Positions 136 through 55,833 of a stretch of DNA of 64,000 bases are shown in pieces. How positions within the stretch are numbered: position 1 is the stretch's first letter; each line of letters starts with the position of its first letter. Origin of the DNA: Blastocatellia bacterium (GTDB taxonomy: Bacteria > Acidobacteriota > Blastocatellia > HR10 > J050); NCBI GenBank assembly GCA_026985075.1, contig JALSQX010000053.1, forward strand, positions 92,773 through 156,772, given 5' to 3'. The notes beneath the pieces were generated by a model. It did not search any database. It was given only the letters and a program-made list of their open reading frames with translations, and was not told the DNA's origin. Made by a program: the position numbers and the translations under genes.

Positions 136-1971
136 TTGCCTGTGAGTATCATTCTGGTGATATCTATTTCGATTCGCCTGGTGGCCTTAGTCTGGTCTTT
201 CGTCCTCTGGCGGCGGGTGCGGGACTGGCGAATGGGGTTCCTGTCGTTCATGCTCGGATTGATGGCGCTGCGCCAGACGCTGACGTGGCTGGGAATGACC
301 TCTGCTCAAGAGGGCTGGCGGGTGCATCCGGTGACCGAGCTTCCTGGCCTCGCGGTGAGCATCCTGGCCTGTCTGGCGATTGTGTTTCTGCATCGCATGT
401 TGACCGAACGCCAACGAACCGAAGAGGCGCTGGCCGCCGAGAAAGAACGCCTCGCCGTCACCCTCCGATCCATCGCTGACGGCGTCATCACCACCGATAC
501 GCGAGGGCACATTGTCCTGATGAATCGAGTGGCCGAAGAACTCACCGGTTGGCCTCAGAGTGAAGCGCGCGGCAAGCCGCTGGCGGAGATCATTCATATC
601 CTCGATGAACGAACGCGCCAGCGGCGACCGGATCCAGGAGAAGAGGTGCTCCGATCCGGCCAGGCCAACAGTTCAAGCTCCAGGACGGTCCTCGTCGCTC
701 GCGACGGCCGGGAGCGGCTCATCAGTGAGAGCCGTGCGCCCATTCGCGACAAAGACGGGAGAATTCGAGGCGCCGTGCTCGTCTTCCACGATGTGACGGA
801 AAAGCAAAAACTCGAAGATGAACTCCTCAAGGTAGAGAGGTTGGAGTCTCTAGGGGCATTGGCTGGTGGTCTCGCTCACGATTTCAACAATATTCTCATG
901 GCCATCCTCGGCAATCTCTCGCTGGCCCGGTTATATGCCTCACCTGGAGACCGGATCCACGAGCGGCTGGAAGCGGCTGAAAAAGCGGCGTTACGAGCCA
1001 GAAATCTCACCGAGCGACTGCTCACCTTCGCTCAAGGTGGAGCTCCGATCCGCTCCATGGCCTCGATCACCGCACTCATCAAGGAGTCGGTGGAATTCGC
1101 CCTCACCGGGTCGAACGTGCGATGCGAGTTCTCGCTTCCTGAGAATCTCTGGCCCGTGGAGGTCGACCACGGACAGATCGGCCAGGCGATCCAAAACCTC
1201 ATCATCAATGCCGACCAGGCGATGCCCGACGGCGGCGTCATCCGCGTGAGGGCGGAGAATGCGATCGTGACGGATCAGATGCCCCTCCCACTGGCGCCGG
1301 GGAAATATGTTAAGGTCACCATCGCCGATCAAGGGACGGGCATTCCCCGAGAGCACCTGGGGAAGATCTTCGATCCCTATTTCACCACCAAGCCCGAAGG
1401 CAGCGGCTTGGGATTGACCACGACGTATTCCATCATCAGGCGACATGGCGGACATATTGCCGTCGATTCTCAGGTGGGCCGCGGGACCATCGTCACATTC
1501 TATTTACCCGCTTCAGAGAAAGAATGGCCCGCGAAAAGACCTTCGGAAGAGCTAGGGGAAGGGCGAGGCAAGATCCTGTTCATGGACGACGAGGAAGTGA
1601 TCCGGGATGTAGCTGGCCACATGCTCACCATACTCGGTTATGAGGTCGTCTCGGCCAAGGATGGCGCCGAAGCCGTTCAACTCTATCAGAAAGCTTATGA
1701 GGCGGGAGAGCCGTTCGACGCGGTCATCATGGACTTGACCGTTCCTGGTGGGATGGGCGGCCGAGAGGCGATCAAGAGGCTTCTGGAGGTCGATCCTCAT
1801 GTCAAGGCCATCGTCTCCAGTGGCTACTTTCAGGATCCGGTCATGGCAGAATACCGGAGGTATGGATTCCGAGCTGTGATCACCAAACCATACAGAATCG
1901 AAGATCTCGATCGCATCATACGCCAGGTGCTCAGCGAACGGGTTCGACGAGCCAACGATGATGTAGCCTGA
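136..1971 (+). CDS. Hybrid sensor histidine kinase / response regulator: N-terminal TM segments, PAS, HisKA, HATPase_c and a C-terminal receiver domain
   Basis: PAS-like block (LAVTLRSIADGVITTD). H-box HDFNNILMAILGNLSLA. N/G-box region (IINADQAMPDGGVIRV, DQGTGIP, GSGLGL). C-terminal receiver (KILFMDDEE...DAVIMDLTVPGGMGG...KAIVSSGY). Start ambiguous: TTG at 136, first ATG at 232. Confidence 0.85.
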   Translation: MPVSIILVISISIRLVALVWSFVLWRRVRDWRMGFLSFMLGLMALRQTLTWLGMTSAQEGWRVHPVTELPGLAVSILACLAIVFLHRMLTERQRTEEALAAEKERLAVTLRSIADGVITTDTRGHIVLMNRVAEELTGWPQSEARGKPLAEIIHILDERTRQRRPDPGEEVLRSGQANSSSSRTVLVARDGRERLISESRAPIRDKDGRIRGAVLVFHDVTEKQKLEDELLKVERLESLGALAGGLAHDFNNILMAILGNLSLARLYASPGDRIHERLEAAEKAALRARNLTERLLTFAQGGAPIRSMASITALIKESVEFALTGSNVRCEFSLPENLWPVEVDHGQIGQAIQNLIINADQAMPDGGVIRVRAENAIVTDQMPLPLAPGKYVKVTIADQGTGIPREHLGKIFDPYFTTKPEGSGLGLTTTYSIIRRHGGHIAVDSQVGRGTIVTFYLPASEKEWPAKRPSEELGEGRGKILFMDDEEVIRDVAGHMLTILGYEVVSAKDGAEAVQLYQKAYEAGEPFDAVIMDLTVPGGMGGREAIKRLLEVDPHVKAIVSSGYFQDPVMAEYRRYGFRAVITKPYRIEDLDRIIRQVLSERVRRANDDVA

Positions 1972-2009: not shown

Positions 2010-3488
2010 CTATCGAATGCCAAACAACGATAGAAAGAATTCCGTCCGCTGAGCGAACGTGAGTCGCGGCGGATCGACATTCCAAATATGAATGAGCGCA
2101 TAGAACACCCACACCCCAGCGATGCGTTTGATGCGAAGGCACATCGCCCATGGACCATCCTGCGGCCAGGTCCGACCACGACGCTTCCGCTCACGAAGTA
2201 AAGAGACATAAATGCCCAGGGCGAGCAGCAACGAATAAAAAATCCGCGGACACAACAACGACCACGCTCCAGTCAATCCCGCGGCGGCGAGATGCCCAAT
2301 ATCGCGCAGCACGTGATAATAGATATTACCCGCGAATGCCGCGGCCATCGTCGCCGCGAATAATCGAAGTCCGGGTCGCGTCTTGAAGTACGACGCATAA
2401 GCTGGAAAGAAGAAGAATTCGACCAGGAGCTCTTTGAAGTAGTAATAGAACCGATTCCAGAATTCCACCACCGACTGTGACAACAACGGTTTATACGTAT
2501 TGCGGAAAACATGGAATCCGAGCAACCGCAAACAGCCGATGATGACATGTCCAGTGATGGCCAGCTTCAGCGTTCGCGTGATCAACTCGACGAACACGCT
2601 CGCCCACGCCCATATCGGCGACGGATGGAACGTCGTCTCCCCACCGATTAACGCGCTCAATCGAGGGAGGTCCAGATGATACCCGGAGAGGGCGGGAGGC
2701 ATGCCATCGACCGGGAGGCCATGCACGAATCCGTTGATCATCCACAAAGCCCCTTGCCAGAACCAGGCCAGGATGAGGAGCTTCAGGCCCGCCAATTGAG
2801 CGCGAGCGCGATCGGCCATCGTCGCCGCCATGGTTTGCTGAAGGTAATCGTAGCCCTTTCCATAAGGAACGTGTGTGCCCCCATAGGCGGGCCAAAGATA
2901 AAAGAAGTGTTCTCGAAAGCGACTGTCTGCCGCTCGACGGCGCTGACCAGCCAGGAGCATATATCCGCAGCGCCAGGCGAGAAAAGGAAAACAGGTCGCC
3001 GCCAACCAGACGCCGGTGGCCATGGGATGACCATGGCGGGGGATGGCCAACAGCCCGACAAGGACTATCCAGATGATCGCATGGAGAACGAAGAGAGGAT
3101 GCCGTTGCACCAGGCGCGGAAGCTGCCCGTATGATCGGGCCGCTCGATAACAGGCATAGAGCCCCCCTCCCACCAGGACCATAGCCAGCAGGAGGGCGGG
3201 CCACCCGTCGGACGCCCAGCCAGGATCGAGGCGTTGCCTCTCGGCCACCGCCCGGTAGAACACATACACGCCGCCGAGCGAGAGGATCAGATGTCGGTGC
3301 GCCGGAAAGCCAATGACCAGCGCCAACAGCGGAGAGATGAGCGCGGCGGCGGCCCGATCGTAGAAAAAGAGGAGCAGCGTGGCCGCCGACCAGACAGCGG
3401 CCTGTCCCCAGGGAGTGGAAACAACCGCGACGAGGCGCTCATCCTCATGAAGTTGTCGGCTCAACGTGAGGAGGGCCGTTGGCGTCAT
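2010..3488 (-). CDS. MBOAT-family (DltB/AlgI-like) polytopic membrane O-acyltransferase-like protein with non-canonical signature
   Basis: About 10 predicted TM helices. The segment LLGFHVFRNTYKPLLSQSVVEFWNRFYYYFKELLVEFFFFPAY aligns position-by-position with the MBOAT signature FN.PY.A.S..EFWRRWHISLS.WLRDY.YIPLGG. A downstream GNIYYH matches the invariant-His region. Start ATG overlaps the upstream carrier-protein stop (ATGA). Confidence 0.6.
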   Translation of the reverse strand: MTPTALLTLSRQLHEDERLVAVVSTPWGQAAVWSAATLLLFFYDRAAAALISPLLALVIGFPAHRHLILSLGGVYVFYRAVAERQRLDPGWASDGWPALLLAMVLVGGGLYACYRAARSYGQLPRLVQRHPLFVLHAIIWIVLVGLLAIPRHGHPMATGVWLAATCFPFLAWRCGYMLLAGQRRRAADSRFREHFFYLWPAYGGTHVPYGKGYDYLQQTMAATMADRARAQLAGLKLLILAWFWQGALWMINGFVHGLPVDGMPPALSGYHLDLPRLSALIGGETTFHPSPIWAWASVFVELITRTLKLAITGHVIIGCLRLLGFHVFRNTYKPLLSQSVVEFWNRFYYYFKELLVEFFFFPAYASYFKTRPGLRLFAATMAAAFAGNIYYHVLRDIGHLAAAGLTGAWSLLCPRIFYSLLLALGIYVSLLRERKRRGRTWPQDGPWAMCLRIKRIAGVWVFYALIHIWNVDPPRLTFAQRTEFFLSLFGIR

Positions 3489-3739
3489 CTCGTCTCGCGC
3501 TCGATCAAGTCCAGGATATGGGCAATGGAATTCAGTTGACCGGGATCGATCCCCCGCTCCGAGAAGTCGATACCATACTCCTGCTCGAGGTATCCCACGA
3601 TCTCCAACACAGCCAGAGAATCGATGAGCCCCGATGTGATGAGTCCCTGATGTTCATCGGTAATATCCAGAGGCCGGTCGGGTCTTCGAATCGTTTGCAA
3701 GAACTGGATCAATTTTGCCTTATGCGCGGCTCGATTCAT
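3485..3739 (-). CDS. Acyl/peptidyl carrier protein (DltC/ACP-like, phosphopantetheine attachment site)
   Basis: 84-aa product MNRAAHKAKLIQFLQ...ITSGLIDSLAVLEIVGYLEQEYGIDF with the carrier-protein DSL(A/V) Ser motif. ATG at 3739-3737 overlaps the ligase stop (ATGA). The track ORF's upstream extension to 3901 is not used. Confidence 0.7.
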   Translation of the reverse strand: MNRAAHKAKLIQFLQTIRRPDRPLDITDEHQGLITSGLIDSLAVLEIVGYLEQEYGIDFSERGIDPGQLNSIAHILDLIERETR

Positions 3740-5265
3740 TGTTTTTCGCTGAACAGGTGATGCACGTCGACCGGCTTCAATCGGGCGCACATGTCCGCCA
3801 CCTGGGCGCGATTGATCTTTCCTCGGGAAGTCCGCGGGATGGCCTCCAGCAGATACCAGCGCACGGGCATCTGATGGTCTGCCAGATGTTGCTTCAGCCA
3901 ATAGTAGAGTCGACGAAGAGTCTCGCGGCGAGAGTCACTCAGTACGACCGCCAGACCAACGTTCTGACCGTACAGTGGATCATCATAGCCGAAGCAGCAC
4001 ACGTCGATGGTCGCGGTGAATCGTTCAACAACGGCGTCGATGTCCCCAGGGTAGATCTTCATTCCGCCCTTGTTGATCTCCTCGCGCTCGCGCCCCCTCA
4101 GATAGAGCCAGCCACGATCATCAATGAGGCCAATGTCCCCGGTCATGAACCATCCCTGACTCACCACCTGACGGGTCAGATCATCGCGTTCCCAATAGCC
4201 CCTCATCAGGGCCGGCGTATTGAGCCAAACGTAGCCTGGCTCATTCGGCGCACAGCCGGGCACCGCCCATGGCGGCTCGTCGGTGGATCGCGACTTCAGG
4301 ATCTTCACCAGCGCGCCCCACGGCTCCCCGATGAGCCCATCGGCCGGCGCGAACTCCGGCATCGTCGTCCCAGCTACCCAACTCCCCGTCTCGGTGATCC
4401 CATAAGCATTGAACACATTCCTGGTGCCGGTCCATTCCTGGATTCGCTCCCAGAGGTGAGCTGAAAGAGGAGCTGATCCGCAAAACACGCGCTCCAGCGT
4501 CCCGGCCCGAGGGGGTCTCGCCGTCTTGAGAGCCAGCCGCCAGAGAGCGGGCACTGAGGACATGAACGTGATCTCAAACTCATCCAGCAACGCGCCCAGC
4601 TGCATGACGAGATCGGCGCGGAACGGCGGCAAGATGAACAACTCCTGACCCCAGAGCCAGGGATATAAGCAGTTGCAAATCAATCCGTGACCAAAATGCG
4701 TCGGGAGCAAGCAGAGCGTGCGACGATAGGCCTTCAGGCCGAGATGCTGACGCAGTGTGACCCATCGCGCGCGCAACGAACGATGGGTGTGAACGACGCC
4801 TTTCGGCTGCCCAGTCGTTCCCGAGGTGAACAGGATCAGCGCATCACGATCGAGCGACGGGTGCCGGCCAGAGAGCGAAGAAGCCTCCTCCGCTGGCAAG
4901 GCGGATTCGGTCGCTTCCAACAGCTTCACGCCCAATGCGGCCAGACGGCTGACGAGCGCCTCGTCGATCGCCTCCACGGCCAAGGCAAATTGTGGACGGG
5001 CGGCGCGAGCGAGCGTTTCGATCTCAAAGGGCGTCAGCCGAATATCGATGGGAATGGCGCACCCTCCCAGACTCCACACGGCCAACAAATCGACGAAGAA
5101 CTCCAGTCGATTCCCGTAGAGGAACAATACGCGATCCCCGGCTCGCATTCCCTGATGTCGATACAAGGCCAGACGTCGAAGAAGCTGCCGCTGGATCTCG
5201 GGTGGCTCCCATCGTCGCCCGGTCAATGGTTCGGTGAGGGCGCCAACGTGCATGTCGACGAACAT
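3736..5265 (-). CDS. AMP-dependent synthetase/ligase (adenylation enzyme; DltA / acyl-ACP synthetase-like)
   Basis: Adenylation core motifs LFTSGTTGQPKGVVHTHRSL (A3) and YGITETG, plus a C-terminal SRGKINR (A10-like Lys). 509 aa. Confidence 0.85.
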   Translation of the reverse strand: MFVDMHVGALTEPLTGRRWEPPEIQRQLLRRLALYRHQGMRAGDRVLFLYGNRLEFFVDLLAVWSLGGCAIPIDIRLTPFEIETLARAARPQFALAVEAIDEALVSRLAALGVKLLEATESALPAEEASSLSGRHPSLDRDALILFTSGTTGQPKGVVHTHRSLRARWVTLRQHLGLKAYRRTLCLLPTHFGHGLICNCLYPWLWGQELFILPPFRADLVMQLGALLDEFEITFMSSVPALWRLALKTARPPRAGTLERVFCGSAPLSAHLWERIQEWTGTRNVFNAYGITETGSWVAGTTMPEFAPADGLIGEPWGALVKILKSRSTDEPPWAVPGCAPNEPGYVWLNTPALMRGYWERDDLTRQVVSQGWFMTGDIGLIDDRGWLYLRGREREEINKGGMKIYPGDIDAVVERFTATIDVCCFGYDDPLYGQNVGLAVVLSDSRRETLRRLYYWLKQHLADHQMPVRWYLLEAIPRTSRGKINRAQVADMCARLKPVDVHHLFSEKQ

Positions 5266-5378: not shown

Positions 5379-7373
5379 TCACGGTCGGCCAGAAACACCC
5401 TGGGCAGAAGATGTGCCAGCGAGACCGCGCTGGTGATAATATCGAATCCACTGCTCCTGCAAGCGGTGAAAGGCCTCCAGTCGCTGACGATACGCCCGAT
5501 CACTCCGAAGACTGAGCCGGGTCCGCTCATCGAACGCCAACCATCTGGGTGAAAAATATTCCCGTTCCGCCACCATGTTCCTCATGAAGCTGCCCTCTTT
5601 GAACAGAAAGCCATCGCTGCCGGTAATATCCCATCCGAGCAGGAACGTGTATCGCCGACTCAGGCGCTCATCCCAAACGGGCAGTCCCTGATGCATGTAG
5701 TCCGTATGGGGTATGCCCAGCAACGCCAGGATGCTGGGCGTGATGTCAATATGTGAGGTCACCTCGTTCACCGAGCGTCTCCGGGAGAAAACGCTGGGAG
5801 CATATATGACGAGGGGGACGTGATATGTTTCGTCGTTCATATACACAGGATCGAAATGCGGACTCTCGATTTGCGATCGAAATCCATGATCGCTGGTCAC
5901 CACGAGAATCGTTCGCTCCCACACCCCGATATCGGCTAATCGGCGGGTGAACGTTTCGAGCAGCCGATCCCTCAAGACAGACAAGTTTTTCACGCGCCCT
6001 TCCCAGCTCCGAGCAGAGAACGGCTTATCCGTCACCCCGGAGACGTCATCGAATCGGAAATGACCCAACGATGGAGCGAGCACCACCAGGAAACGACGAT
6101 GGGCTTTCCAGAGCCGGGCGATCGCCTCGCTCGCCGCTCGATAGAGTCGCTTATCGATCTCGTAGCGGCGGGTGCTGCCGGACATTTGCCACAGAGGATC
6201 TTCCAGAGAGTCCGTCAGAAAGCTACGAAGGTTCCTGATCTGGTCAAACCCCAACTGGCTGATGAGGAACCGCTCCTTATTTCGGTTGCGCACGTCGCCG
6301 AAGAAAAGAGAGACGTATCCCCATCGGGCCAGAATCTGCGGCAAGGCGTCGGCGCGATAGCGCCCGTATCTCCAAGCGATGTTCTGTGACCCCGGCAACG
6401 GATACGTGGAGGTGAGAATGGAAAATAAAGCCCGGATCGAGCGCGGAGAGGTCGTATAGTGGTGTTCGCCCACAATCGCCCTCTCGCTCAGCCGCTTCAA
6501 TCCGGGGAGATAGGCCAAATCGGGCGAAGCATACCGATAGGGAGCCGTCTCCCAAATGACGATGATGACATTCGCTCCGGGAACGACCGACGACCACTTT
6601 CGGCCCTCCGGTCGCTCTGACTCGTCCTGATGATCGAGCACGAGCTGTTCGTACCGCGCCTTCAAGATCTCGGGAGGCGGCAATGGGCCGGACGTCGCCC
6701 GAGGCGCGCTTCGACTCGCTTCGTAGACCAACTGGAGCATCGATTTTTGATTCGCAGCCGTGCGCTCTTGCCACAATGACACGATGGCCGCCAGGAAGAT
6801 GATCCCGAGACTCGCTCCCCGAGCGACTGCGGCGAACCGAGAGCGGAGGAGAGCCCACCGTCGCTCCTCAGAGACGATGAGCAGCAGGAATGAGGAGGAA
6901 AACGCAAACAGCGTTCCCCCCACGAGCTTGGTCACTAACGAAGGGCTCACCGCGCCCCATACCGCATCCGGATAGCCGAAGAGCAGTTCCTGAAGCTGAT
7001 GAATCCGCTGCACCCCGAAATGACTCCCGAACTTCATAACGTCGATGCACTCGGCCAGAGCGAGGACATGGACGCACAACAAAACGCCCATCGCGCCTAA
7101 TAGTTTGAACCGAAAGAAAGCATCGGTTCGCACCAGAAGCCACGATAGCACAGCGATAGACGCGGCGATGAGAAGAACGTCCTCGGAGAAATATCGGAGG
7201 AAACGAATGGGATCACTCCGGCAAAGCGCCACCGCTATCCCCAGCAAAACCCAGAGAGGACGCCCTGGATGAGCGAATAAGCAGATGAATTTCAATCCGA
7301 GCTGAGCTAACGCATAAGGAAAGAACAGGAGCGAAAAGAGGGCCAACCACGGGCTTCGCCAATGTACAGGCAT
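5379..7373 (-). CDS. LtaS/MdoB-like sulfatase-family membrane transferase (phosphoglycerol/polyglycerol-phosphate transferase-like)
   Basis: N-terminal multi-TM domain followed by an alkaline-phosphatase-superfamily sulfatase domain (NVIIVIWETAPYRY..., VVTSDHGFR). ATG at 7373 is preceded by GAGGAG; the track ORF begins at GTG 7385. Confidence 0.75.
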   Translation of the reverse strand: MPVHWRSPWLALFSLLFFPYALAQLGLKFICLFAHPGRPLWVLLGIAVALCRSDPIRFLRYFSEDVLLIAASIAVLSWLLVRTDAFFRFKLLGAMGVLLCVHVLALAECIDVMKFGSHFGVQRIHQLQELLFGYPDAVWGAVSPSLVTKLVGGTLFAFSSSFLLLIVSEERRWALLRSRFAAVARGASLGIIFLAAIVSLWQERTAANQKSMLQLVYEASRSAPRATSGPLPPPEILKARYEQLVLDHQDESERPEGRKWSSVVPGANVIIVIWETAPYRYASPDLAYLPGLKRLSERAIVGEHHYTTSPRSIRALFSILTSTYPLPGSQNIAWRYGRYRADALPQILARWGYVSLFFGDVRNRNKERFLISQLGFDQIRNLRSFLTDSLEDPLWQMSGSTRRYEIDKRLYRAASEAIARLWKAHRRFLVVLAPSLGHFRFDDVSGVTDKPFSARSWEGRVKNLSVLRDRLLETFTRRLADIGVWERTILVVTSDHGFRSQIESPHFDPVYMNDETYHVPLVIYAPSVFSRRRSVNEVTSHIDITPSILALLGIPHTDYMHQGLPVWDERLSRRYTFLLGWDITGSDGFLFKEGSFMRNMVAEREYFSPRWLAFDERTRLSLRSDRAYRQRLEAFHRLQEQWIRYYHQRGLAGTSSAQGVSGRP

Positions 7374-7910
7374 ACATCCAAGCACTCCTCACCGCCAGAG
7401 AAAATCTCCTCGTCGGCGGTCACTCTCGATCCGAGGGGACTGTTTCCTATATCATCCTCATCGAGAAAAATCAAGAGCAAGGCGTCGTTCTTTGAGGAGG
7501 CGCTAAGAGCAGTGCGAGAAGGAACGCCGAGGCAGAGCCGTAAAGAGAGGTTCTTTTGAAGTTTCCCGCCTTTCACAACTCCTGTCCCGTTGATGCCGCA
7601 CCGGCGAGGTCGTCGATGAGTTAGCGAAAGAGTGGGCAGAGTGGTCGTATACCCTTTGGCAACCCCCTCGGAGTTCCGAGAGCGTGATGAAGCAGGTCAC
7701 TTCATAGAGAGGAGAACCCATCTCCGCGGAACGAGAGATACCGCGATGGCCGATGGAATGAACGGGCCACCAGCGGCCAATGCCCCCTCTCCACGAGCAG
7801 AAGACCATCGGCCGACTGGTGGTCGTGTCGCATGCGATCATCCTCGGCCCGTATGGCGGTTCGTCATACGCCATTGGCCGACGGATGGTCGTGGCCCATC
7901 TGGACTGTCG

Positions 7911-54182: not shown

Positions 54183-55114
54183 ATGGCATTGAAGCTGGTA
54201 GAGGCAGCTTATATGAGGCGTCCCAAATACAAGTGCCAAGATTTTCTAAATGAGCTTGCTGTGGGCCAAGCGTATGGTATTTTTGTTGATGATACTGGCG
54301 CTCCTGGTCTCACTGATGCACCAGCAAACTTCCATCCCAACCGGAAATCTTGGGTTGCCGTTCCACCATGGCACATGCCTGAAGTTCTTAAGCAGCTTCC
54401 TCGTGCACTATAGGAACTAGAAAAGCTGACAGGGGCCGGAGAGCTTCATTTTGCGGACATTTATGCAGGCCGAAGGGAATTCAGGGAAGTTGATCTCCGG
54501 GTTCGACGTGCGCTGTTTGAGTTTATGGCACATATTTTCTCAGTATATCAATTCCCTATCATTGTTCAGACCTTTGATCCGAAAACGTTATCTTATCTTC
54601 ACTCCCGTAGCCAAGGAGAATTGCCGGACCGCCTTCCGCCCTTTGATTTTACCAAGCCAGAAGACGCAGCCTTTTTTTCTTGCTGATCCGATTGAGGTTG
54701 TTTATGGAGCAAACGCCGGAGTATCCTAAAGTAAAAGCGCATGTATTCGTTGACGAAGGTTGGAAAAGCAATGGTGTTGCAATTAAAATCCCAATATTCG
54801 AAGATGTGTTCAATGATGGATTGGTCTGTTTTTGCCGGAGTTCAACTATCTTGCCTATCCAGCTTGCAGATTTTGCTGCATTCGCTCTAAATCGCACTCA
54901 GCTCGTATGTGGGCGCAACAAACGAAGCCCGTTGGATATGCATTTACTTGAGATTTTATCCAAAGTTGCGAATAACTATGTGAATATTGAGAAAAAGATT
55001 GTTTCATTAGTAGAAGAAGGTCCAATGATTACCTTGGTTGGTACGCGTCCCACGGACCTTATTAATCGCCATCTAACGCCCGCTGCAGTCAACCCGCCTC
55101 CGCCAGCGCTCTAG
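54183..55114 (+). pseudogene. Disrupted gene: one reading frame interrupted by an in-frame TAG (54411) and a frameshift at a T7 run (54672-54678); possible DUF3800-like product
   Basis: Frame 0 is open and protein-like from 54183 to 54686 apart from a single amber codon. A +1 T in the T7 tract would fuse it to the frame-2 ORF 54680-55114. Motifs IFVDDTG / VFVDEGW and IQLADFAAFA suggest the DES...QxxD signature of DUF3800. Confidence 0.4.
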
Positions 55115-55216: not shown

Positions 55217-55444
55217 ATGAAGAGCAAAATGCAAGCTTATCGAGTCGAAACCACAGTTACCCAAGACGGTACTCTCATCATCAAAGGAGTTCCCTTTCGG
55301 GCAGGAACGAAGGTGGAAGTCATCATCCTCAGCCACTTTCGTAAAGCTGCAAAGGAAGTACGCTATCCCTTGCGAGGTAAGCCGATTCGGTATCTGGCGC
55401 CATTCGAGAGTGTTGCCGAGGATGAGTGGGAAGCACTGTCATGA
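55217..55444 (+). CDS. vapB: VapB-like antitoxin (AbrB/SpoVT-like swapped-hairpin candidate)
   Basis: Small acidic C-terminal tail (SVAEDEWEALS). The stop overlaps the vapC start (ATGA). Start uncertain among GTG 55205, ATG 55217 and ATG 55229. Confidence 0.5.
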   Translation: MKSKMQAYRVETTVTQDGTLIIKGVPFRAGTKVEVIILSHFRKAAKEVRYPLRGKPIRYLAPFESVAEDEWEALS

Positions 55445-55833
55445 TCATGCTTGACACACATATTTGGGTTTGGTGGGTGCATGGAGATTCACATCTTACC
55501 CAAACTCAAATGGAAGCAATTGCTGCACACGAGGAGGATGTGATTGGTGTGAGTGCGATTTCATGTTGGGAAATAGCTAAACTAGTCGAGTATGGTCGTC
55601 TGGAATTGCCCTGTCCACTGGAGGAATGGTTTGAACAAGCGTTGAGTTATCCCGGGATGCACTTACTCCCATTAACGCCGGAAATAGCCATTGAGTCAAC
55701 GCGGCTGCCGGGAAAATTTCATCGTGACCCTGTGGATCAAATCATCGTGGCCACGGCCAGGGTGTCCAATTGCCCACTTGTGACTTCGGATCAGAGGATT
55801 TTGAACTACCCGCACGTTGTAACGATAAGGTAA
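55441..55833 (+). CDS. vapC: PIN-domain ribonuclease toxin VapC
   Basis: MIMLDTHIWVW (Asp4 equivalent), CWEIAKL (Glu), and a third acidic residue in VTSDQRIL. Classic 4-nt overlap with the antitoxin. Confidence 0.8.
   Translation: MIMLDTHIWVWWVHGDSHLTQTQMEAIAAHEEDVIGVSAISCWEIAKLVEYGRLELPCPLEEWFEQALSYPGMHLLPLTPEIAIESTRLPGKFHRDPVDQIIVATARVSNCPLVTSDQRILNYPHVVTIR

Follow-up and report, generated by a model that had tools for sequence, protein, structure and literature searches.

Here we describe a divergent MBOAT-fold membrane protein encoded in a 64,000-nucleotide stretch of DNA from a Blastocatellia bacterium (Acidobacteriota; NCBI GenBank assembly GCA_026985075.1, contig JALSQX010000053.1, positions 92,773 to 156,772 of the forward strand), referred to as the window in the following. 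The protein of 492 amino acids (aa) is the product of an ATG-started open reading frame (ORF) at 2010-3488 on the minus strand. It belongs to the MBOAT superfamily, based on a profile match that lies far beyond chance and is independently backed by the fold, and it represents a new, deeply divergent family of this known superfamily, the operon architecture of which is likewise new. We consider it likely, with a probability of about 0.6, that the protein is a catalytically competent member of a large and deeply divergent MBOAT branch and that, like DltB, it provides the membrane component within a three-part acyl-transfer system of the Dlt kind.

The part of the protein that corresponds to the MBOAT signature block is the 41-residue segment LLGFHVFRNTYKPLLSQSVVEFWNRFYYYFKELLVEFFFFP (aa 322-362; nucleotides (nt) 2403-2525, minus strand). 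The alignment with hhalign and the family alignment identify this segment, RNTYKPL...EFWNRFYYYFKELLVEFFFFP, as the re-entrant loop-2. For comparison we used DltB of S. thermophilus (PDB 6BUG), the sequence of which was obtained through the PDB sequence search. DltB reads KEFWNRW-H289-MSLSFWFRDFVFMR, followed by H336 within GFWHG, while the corresponding stretch of the window protein is VEFWNRF-Y348-YYFKELLVEFFFFP. Both proteins share the core EFWNR without a change, and Tyr348 (nt 2445-2447, minus strand) occupies the position aligned with DltB His289. Overall the identity to DltB is only about 14%. A region of about 110 residues at the N-terminus is specific to the MBOAT-like family, and the hairpin between the transmembrane (TM) helices TM6' and TM7' is about 15 residues longer than in DltB.

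Searches of Pfam, NCBIfam and the PDB with the window protein revealed nothing related: no Pfam family was matched at E ≤ 1, the single NCBIfam match was spurious, and the curated models PF03062 (MBOAT) and PF13813 (MBOAT_2) matched neither the window protein nor any of 42 family members. The MBOAT relationship is thus beyond the reach of comparing hidden Markov models (HMMs) with single sequences. Profile-profile alignment with a narrow DltB profile, built from Streptococcus only, provided an E-value of 2.5e-4 and a probability of just 43%, such that this profile was exchanged for an alignment of 15 diverse bacterial MBOATs (DltB, PatA, AlgI/WssH-like) taken from plasmid records. With the family profile of 218 sequences a probability of 98.1% and an E-value of 7.2e-14 over 283 columns were then obtained. 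The posteriors were above 0.99 across H314-R346, including E342-R346 on DltB E283-R287, and reached 0.68 for Tyr348 on DltB His289. An initial annotation, made from the letters of the window, had described this segment in the ORF and had matched it residue for residue with the MBOAT block of DltB. The segment is present as described, EFWNRFYY is aligned onto EFWNRWHM of DltB, and the profile-profile alignment places the motif where it had been proposed. The fold points in the same direction: An AlphaFold2 model calculated from a 42-sequence alignment (mean predicted local distance difference test score, pLDDT, of 85.6; predicted template modelling score of 0.85) exhibits the funnel of tilted TM helices and the conserved 8-TM core of the MBOAT fold. 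DltB was the top-ranked Foldseek match to this model (E 3e-5).

MBOAT enzymes employ a catalytic pair that consists of an invariant His on TM6' and of an Asn, Asp or His on the re-entrant loop-2 (PMC12979248). For DltB these residues are His336 and His289 (PMC11035591). The residue that is replaced in the window protein is thus the variable partner of the pair. The initial annotation was correct in reading Phe-Tyr in place of Trp-His, but the His that is lost is the second, variable catalytic residue rather than the invariant one. Among 121 close members of the family position 348 is Tyr in 112 (92%), His in 5 (4%), Phe in 3 and Leu in one. The whole aromatic run, the conservation of which had been left to a survey of homologues, is maintained in these sequences (Y348 92%, Y349 91%, Y350 100%, F351 97%), i.e. 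at 91-100% per position. His314, Trp344, Arg346, Tyr350, Lys352, Glu353 and Asn388 are invariant in the same set. Downstream of the signature block, family conservation and the model helices mark the motif GNIYYH (aa 387-392; 2313-2330, minus strand) at the periplasmic end of the predicted TM6'. Its terminal residue is His in 116 of the 121 close members, Gln in three and Thr in two; in the larger set Asn388 is found in 218 of 218 and His392 in 209 of 218 sequences (96%). Tyr418 is conserved to 97% and aligns with DltB Tyr345 at a posterior of 0.94, and Trp344 aligns with DltB Trp285. These two DltB residues are part of the aromatic cluster of the active site (PMC11035591). A distant subgroup of the family retains FWNRYYYYFKELLV as well as GNxxYHF, but lacks Asp193-His194.

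Which residue takes the place of the TM6' histidine depends on how the region behind loop-2 is aligned. At a posterior of 0.83 hhalign pairs DltB G333-F-W-H336 with G407-A-W-S410 and treats residues 381-394, which hold GNIYYH, as an insertion. When either of the two candidate insertions was deleted in order to force the alternatives, S410 scored 118.5 and H392 110.4. Judged by the alignments, the invariant His could therefore be absent, which speaks against an active enzyme. The topology of the model suggests a different assignment. Behind loop-2 the model contains helices at 372-395, 397-436 and 446-470, which correspond one-to-one with the three DltB helices at 318-336, 341-373 and 383-412 of a control AlphaFold2 model, in which the His follows directly after the first helix. 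The control model was poor (pLDDT 50) and served for the order of the helices only. In the window protein His392 is located three residues ahead of the end of helix 372-395, the first TM helix after loop-2, and the invariant MBOAT histidine sits on TM6' (PMC12979248). The spacing between Tyr348 and His392 is 44 residues compared to 47 for the DltB pair. Ser410 is found on the following helix (397-436), which is antiparallel to the first, and falls into a variable and indel-rich stretch (residues 396-413), while GNxYYH is the most conserved part of that region. From this predicted topology we infer that S410 is probably not the equivalent of DltB His336 and that His392 is the probable catalytic histidine. 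The proposal of the initial annotation that the GNIYYH His could be the invariant one is hence plausible by helix topology and spacing, although hhalign slightly prefers the unconserved S410. Residues 407-410 (about 2259-2270 of the window, minus strand) contain a semi-conserved G-x-W followed by a variable residue, with Gly at 45% and Trp at 50% among the 218 sequences. This motif resembles the canonical G-[FL]-W-H-G, which draws the hhalign alignment to this site. The likeness has either arisen by chance or is left over from the ancestral motif.

The genetic context of the protein, the most informative part of the evidence, resembles that of a Dlt system. The MBOAT-like gene is the last of four genes on the minus strand, in the order LtaS-like gene, ligase, carrier and MBOAT-like gene. 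The ligase (3736-5265, minus strand; 509 aa) is an adenylate-forming enzyme of the ANL superfamily in the role of DltA, with matches to AMP-binding (4e-60) and AMP-binding_C. Its P-loop (TSGTTGQPKG) and the catalytic Lys of the C-terminal part (GK) are retained. Within the PDB it is best matched by fatty-acyl, oxalate, feruloyl and malonyl-CoA ligases. DltA is not among its 57 PDB matches at E ≤ 1e-20, nor is a DltA model found among the best 25 of 106 NCBIfam matches. The A4 region, LLPTHFGHG, we take to be of the acyl-CoA-synthetase type and not DltA-like. Since the relatives of the ligase are acyl-CoA ligases and its A4 region is of this type, the cargo, as far as it can be read from the sequence, is probably not D-alanine but a carboxylic acid that lacks an alpha-amino group.

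The carrier (3485-3739, minus strand; 84 aa) takes the role of DltC and carries the phosphopantetheine site LIDSLAVLE with Ser41. It matches NCBIfam acyl carrier protein (ACP) families, and its PP-binding match (E 9e-4) of 19.9 bits is just below the cut-off of 20.8, with the DSL motif intact. The junctions between ligase and carrier and between carrier and MBOAT-like gene are both ATGA stop-start overlaps. In the mechanical ORF list the carrier appeared as a TTG-started ORF of 138 aa (3485-3901, minus strand). Because its orthologues in loci L001, L002, L083 and L084 have 84 aa and because of the ATGA overlap with the ligase stop, we regard the 84-aa version as the true gene. A role of the carrier as the ACP of ornithine-lipid synthesis was considered as well, given a match to the NCBIfam model ACP_for_OlsHI (33 bits compared to a cut-off of 130), and was rejected, since OlsH (GH3-like) and OlsI (alpha/beta-hydrolase) are unrelated to the cassette.

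The first gene of the apparent operon (5379-7385, minus strand) encodes a polytopic membrane protein with a periplasmic domain of the alkaline-phosphatase superfamily ('Sulfatase', 3e-29), which is LtaS/LtaP/OpgB-like. It has weak matches to the NCBIfam models for LtaS and YejM, and its PDB matches are VP1736, LTA primase and LtaS. A scan for sigma-70 promoters provided 2 sites at a shuffle mean of 2.6, i.e. not above the shuffled sequences. Terminator-like sites numbered 11 at a shuffle mean of 5.6 (standard deviation 2.7); as all of them are located inside genes they were not taken as functional. A hybrid histidine kinase of 611 aa (PAS-HisKA-HATPase-receiver; 136-1971, plus strand) is encoded in convergent orientation just past the point where the MBOAT-like gene ends. 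Loci with a homologous kinase beside the cassette include L004 and a few others (5 by neighbour clustering), and the kinase may be a dedicated regulator of the cassette.

The family is large. A word-index search found 847 relatives; the 120 that were listed are all without a precomputed Pfam domain, and those named by their source are all called 'hypothetical protein'. An exhaustive profile search over 1.84 billion representatives resulted in 1,105 clusters (at 50% identity) at E ≤ 1e-3 and in 359 clusters at E ≤ 1e-30. One relative, from an Acidobacteria metagenome-assembled genome (MAG), shares 86% identity with the window protein. Within the species genomes of GTDB 170 stretches encode relatives, nearly all of them MAGs of Gram-negative lineages. 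The hosts comprise Acidobacteriota, Binatia, Magnetococcales, Accumulibacter, Propionivibrio, Rhodoferax, Methylophilaceae, Nitrospirales, Verrucomicrobiota, Gemmatimonadota, Spirochaetota, Myxococcota and Desulfarculaceae.

We surveyed 83 related loci, 59 of which have at least 2.5 kb on both flanks. In 44 of these 59 full-flank loci a ligase orthologue and a carrier are encoded on the same strand as the MBOAT-like gene, and the cassette occurs in two gene orders. The ligase orthologues are 52-65% identical and thus better conserved than the MBOAT-like protein. Nine of the full-flank loci, among them loci of Magnetococcales, have the carrier only. In the Magnetococcales loci L009, L015, L017, L019, L020, L034, L045, L053 and L061 the carrier adjoins the MBOAT-like gene while the conserved ligase orthologue is absent; four of them (L015, L034, L045 and L061) contain a distant AMP-binding match (22-26% identity) downstream, which suggests a swapped activating enzyme. 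In 35 of 84 loci the cassette has a TM-anchored LtaS-like gene as its neighbour. About 25 loci furthermore encode a protein of 278-285 aa from the phosphoenolpyruvate (PEP)-mutase/isocitrate-lyase superfamily (e.g. L001:5372-6214 and L002:9373-10209), which is absent from the window. Its nearest matches are petal death protein, carboxyvinyl-carboxyphosphonate phosphorylmutase, dimethylmalate lyase and methylisocitrate lyase, and it may make or trim the acid to be loaded. On a Deltaproteobacteria-type contig (L085:4721-10395; L013 is the matching GTDB locus) four MBOAT-like paralogues of 465, 458, 464 and 464 aa are arranged in tandem between one ligase-carrier pair and one LtaS-like gene.

The characterised bacterial MBOATs hand the acyl group to an invariant Tyr within an FxYxxF motif, provided either by DltX or by their own C-terminus, before an SGNH enzyme takes over (PMC12148441). 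All 11 non-Dlt MBOATs that we collected end in PF[IL]Y[FW]xF. In the window protein this place, directly after the equivalent of TM8', is occupied by FFLSLFG (aa 484-490; 2019-2039, minus strand). The family consensus of this tail, R-x-x-F-[FL]-[LF]-S-L-F-G, is located 1-3 residues before the C-terminus and contains no Tyr. Its central Ser is 59% conserved, and the position is never conserved as Tyr. The tail may be a degenerate or repurposed shuttle motif. A search for DltX-like microproteins in 83 loci found one small ORF, at chance level. No SGNH/GDSL protein was present among the Pfam-labelled neighbours in five loci, and unbiased clustering of neighbours over 84 loci revealed no further widespread partner.

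The fold, the homology, the substitutions with their conservation and the arrangement of the genes are observed, whereas the chemistry, the direction of transfer, the cargo and the acceptor are proposed on this basis. These data can be combined into a tentative picture of how such a system would operate. The ANL ligase would adenylate a carboxylic acid and load it as a thioester onto the phosphopantetheine arm of the 84-aa carrier, which would then dock onto the cytoplasmic horizontal helix past the FWNR motif. In DltB Arg317 forms a salt bridge with DltC, and the family-invariant Arg375 aligns with this residue, at a posterior of only 0.20. The arm would pass through a cytoplasmic tunnel to a reaction centre in the middle of the membrane, formed by Trp344, Tyr348/Tyr350, Asn388, Tyr391, His392 and Tyr418. 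There His392 would act as the general base, and the hydroxyl of Tyr348 would stand in for the Asn, Asp or His side chain that normally polarises the thioester. Finally, an acceptor on the periplasmic side would receive the acyl group; a lipid or a glycan that bears a glycerophosphate-type decoration from the LtaS-like enzyme is plausible here. As both an SGNH partner and an acyl-Tyr shuttle motif are missing, the transfer would be direct or proceed by a different relay. A bolder version, improbable in our view, is a self-contained transmembrane acyl relay that forms a Gram-negative counterpart of teichoic-acid esterification: Tyr348 and Tyr350 of loop-2 would themselves be covalent acyl-Tyr carriers, and the cargo would be a small organic acid that the PEP-mutase-family protein helps to make or select. 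Without any SGNH enzyme this acid would reach glycerophosphate units that the LtaS-like protein has put in place, which would yield a chemically undescribed modification of an envelope polymer or lipid. An extracytoplasmic relay would not be needed at all if the enzyme were a lipid-acylating variant similar to DGAT1 or LPLAT. It would then transfer a fatty acyl group from the acyl-carrier onto a membrane lipid within the bilayer, e.g. diacylglycerol from the LtaS-like partner or a lysolipid. We consider this unlikely.

Besides the alignment at S410, several findings weigh against a catalytically competent, Dlt-like enzyme. The Pfam MBOAT models match 0 of 42 family members even at E ≤ 10, and searching the PDB sequences by phmmer and with the family HMM (hmmsearch) retrieved nothing related. 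Tyr at the loop-2 position is outside the Asn/Asp/His repertoire reported for MBOATs (PMC12979248), His392 is replaced by Q, T, S, E or P in about 4% of the members, and 6 of the 59 full-flank loci have neither ligase nor carrier. Some of the latter loci come from MAGs with a complete cassette on another contig and may thus be second copies.

The exchange of the loop-2 catalytic residue for Tyr, the placement of the invariant His on an unconserved position by hhalign and the members without His392 would all fit a non-catalytic MBOAT-fold protein, which serves as a scaffold, a channel or a docking platform for the carrier and leaves the chemistry to another protein, e.g. the LtaS-like enzyme. 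Tandem paralogues, such as the four in L085, could likewise include inactive copies. In pseudoenzymes, however, the surroundings of the former active site usually become less conserved, while the most conserved residues of this entire protein are polar or aromatic ones in that very region (W344, N345, R346, Y350, K352, E353, N388, Y390, H392 and Y418). The recurrence of His at position 348 in some members suggests a functionally constrained hydrogen-bonding position, translation of the MBOAT-like gene is coupled to that of ligase and carrier, and the cassette is kept across many phyla. We therefore judge a scaffold to be quite unlikely; of the two possibilities left by the initial annotation, a divergent MBOAT subfamily with altered funnel chemistry is favoured over a non-catalytic scaffold by the near-invariant polar residues around the site and by the coupling to ligase and carrier. 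Outside Dlt, acetyl-CoA is the donor for most bacterial MBOATs (PMC12148441), such that the protein might also be an ordinary acyl-CoA-dependent polymer O-acetyltransferase of the AlgI/PatA type that is too divergent for Pfam, with ligase and carrier belonging to an unrelated pathway; the six loci that lack both genes would agree with this. Against it stand the ligase-carrier-MBOAT association in 44 of the 59 full-flank loci from unrelated phyla and in two gene orders, the overlapping stop and start codons in the window, the absence of the C-terminal FxYxxF that all 11 examined AlgI/PatA-type proteins possess, and the absence of an SGNH partner. An ordinary O-acetyltransferase thus appears very improbable, and a catalytically competent Dlt-like enzyme remains our preferred reading.

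Elsewhere in the window, the GC content drops to 0.485 between 54000 and 56000 compared to about 0.59 in the remainder. This stretch contains an ORF of 135 aa (55426-55833) that, judged by eye, appears to resemble a PIN-domain (VapC-like) toxin, and an ORF of 144 aa (54680-55114) to which no function was assigned. It is probably a small acquired island. No tRNA genes were found in the 64-kb window.

Ligase and carrier logic of the DltA/DltC kind is also used in a Gram-negative envelope modification: In the AlmEFG system, which modifies lipid A of Vibrio cholerae with glycine, a small carrier is charged by an adenylating ligase and in turn supplies a membrane acyltransferase. AlmG differs from the window protein in its fold, since it belongs to the lysophospholipid/lipid A acyltransferase superfamily and not to the MBOATs. 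The eukaryotic MBOATs (HHAT, PORCN, GOAT, LPCAT3, MBOAT7, DGAT1, ACAT) use acyl-CoA donors, and none of them is reported with a Tyr at the loop-2 position. The Dlt system of Gram-positive bacteria (DltB with DltA and DltC; teichoic-acid D-alanylation; 6BUG, 8JEM) encodes ligase and carrier together with the MBOAT, as is the case here. It differs in that DltB has His289 at the position of the tyrosine, that neither DltD (SGNH) nor DltX was found at the loci studied here, that the ligase is acyl-CoA-synthetase-like and not an orthologue of DltA, and that the hosts belong to typically Gram-negative (diderm) phyla. PatA/PatB, AlgI/AlgJ/AlgX and WssH share the inner-membrane MBOAT fold in Gram-negative bacteria and, like the family described here, end in a conserved hydrophobic motif. 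These enzymes use acetyl-CoA as donor, carry the invariant Tyr of the C-terminal FxYxxF on two extra TM helices and require an SGNH partner (PMC12148441), whereas the tail F-[FL]-[LF]-S-L-F-G of the family described here has no Tyr, a carrier is present and no SGNH gene is linked. The literature that could be searched contained no description of a system of MBOAT, ligase, carrier and LtaS-like protein in Gram-negative bacteria, nor of the MBOAT-like family itself.

The family keeps the MBOAT fold and the Dlt-style ligase and carrier while it breaks three rules: the pair of His with Asn, Asp or His that defines MBOATs, and the acyl-tyrosine shuttle motif and the SGNH partner that all mechanistically studied bacterial members require. 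In practical terms it constitutes an annotation gap, as the window protein is not covered by any model of Pfam or NCBIfam. Provided that the family is active, the catalytic position on loop-2 would tolerate a Tyr, and MBOATs that are fed by carrier proteins would be widespread outside Gram-positive bacteria. An undescribed acyl modification of the Gram-negative envelope would then exist, possibly tied to glycerophosphate transfer by the LtaS-like enzyme.

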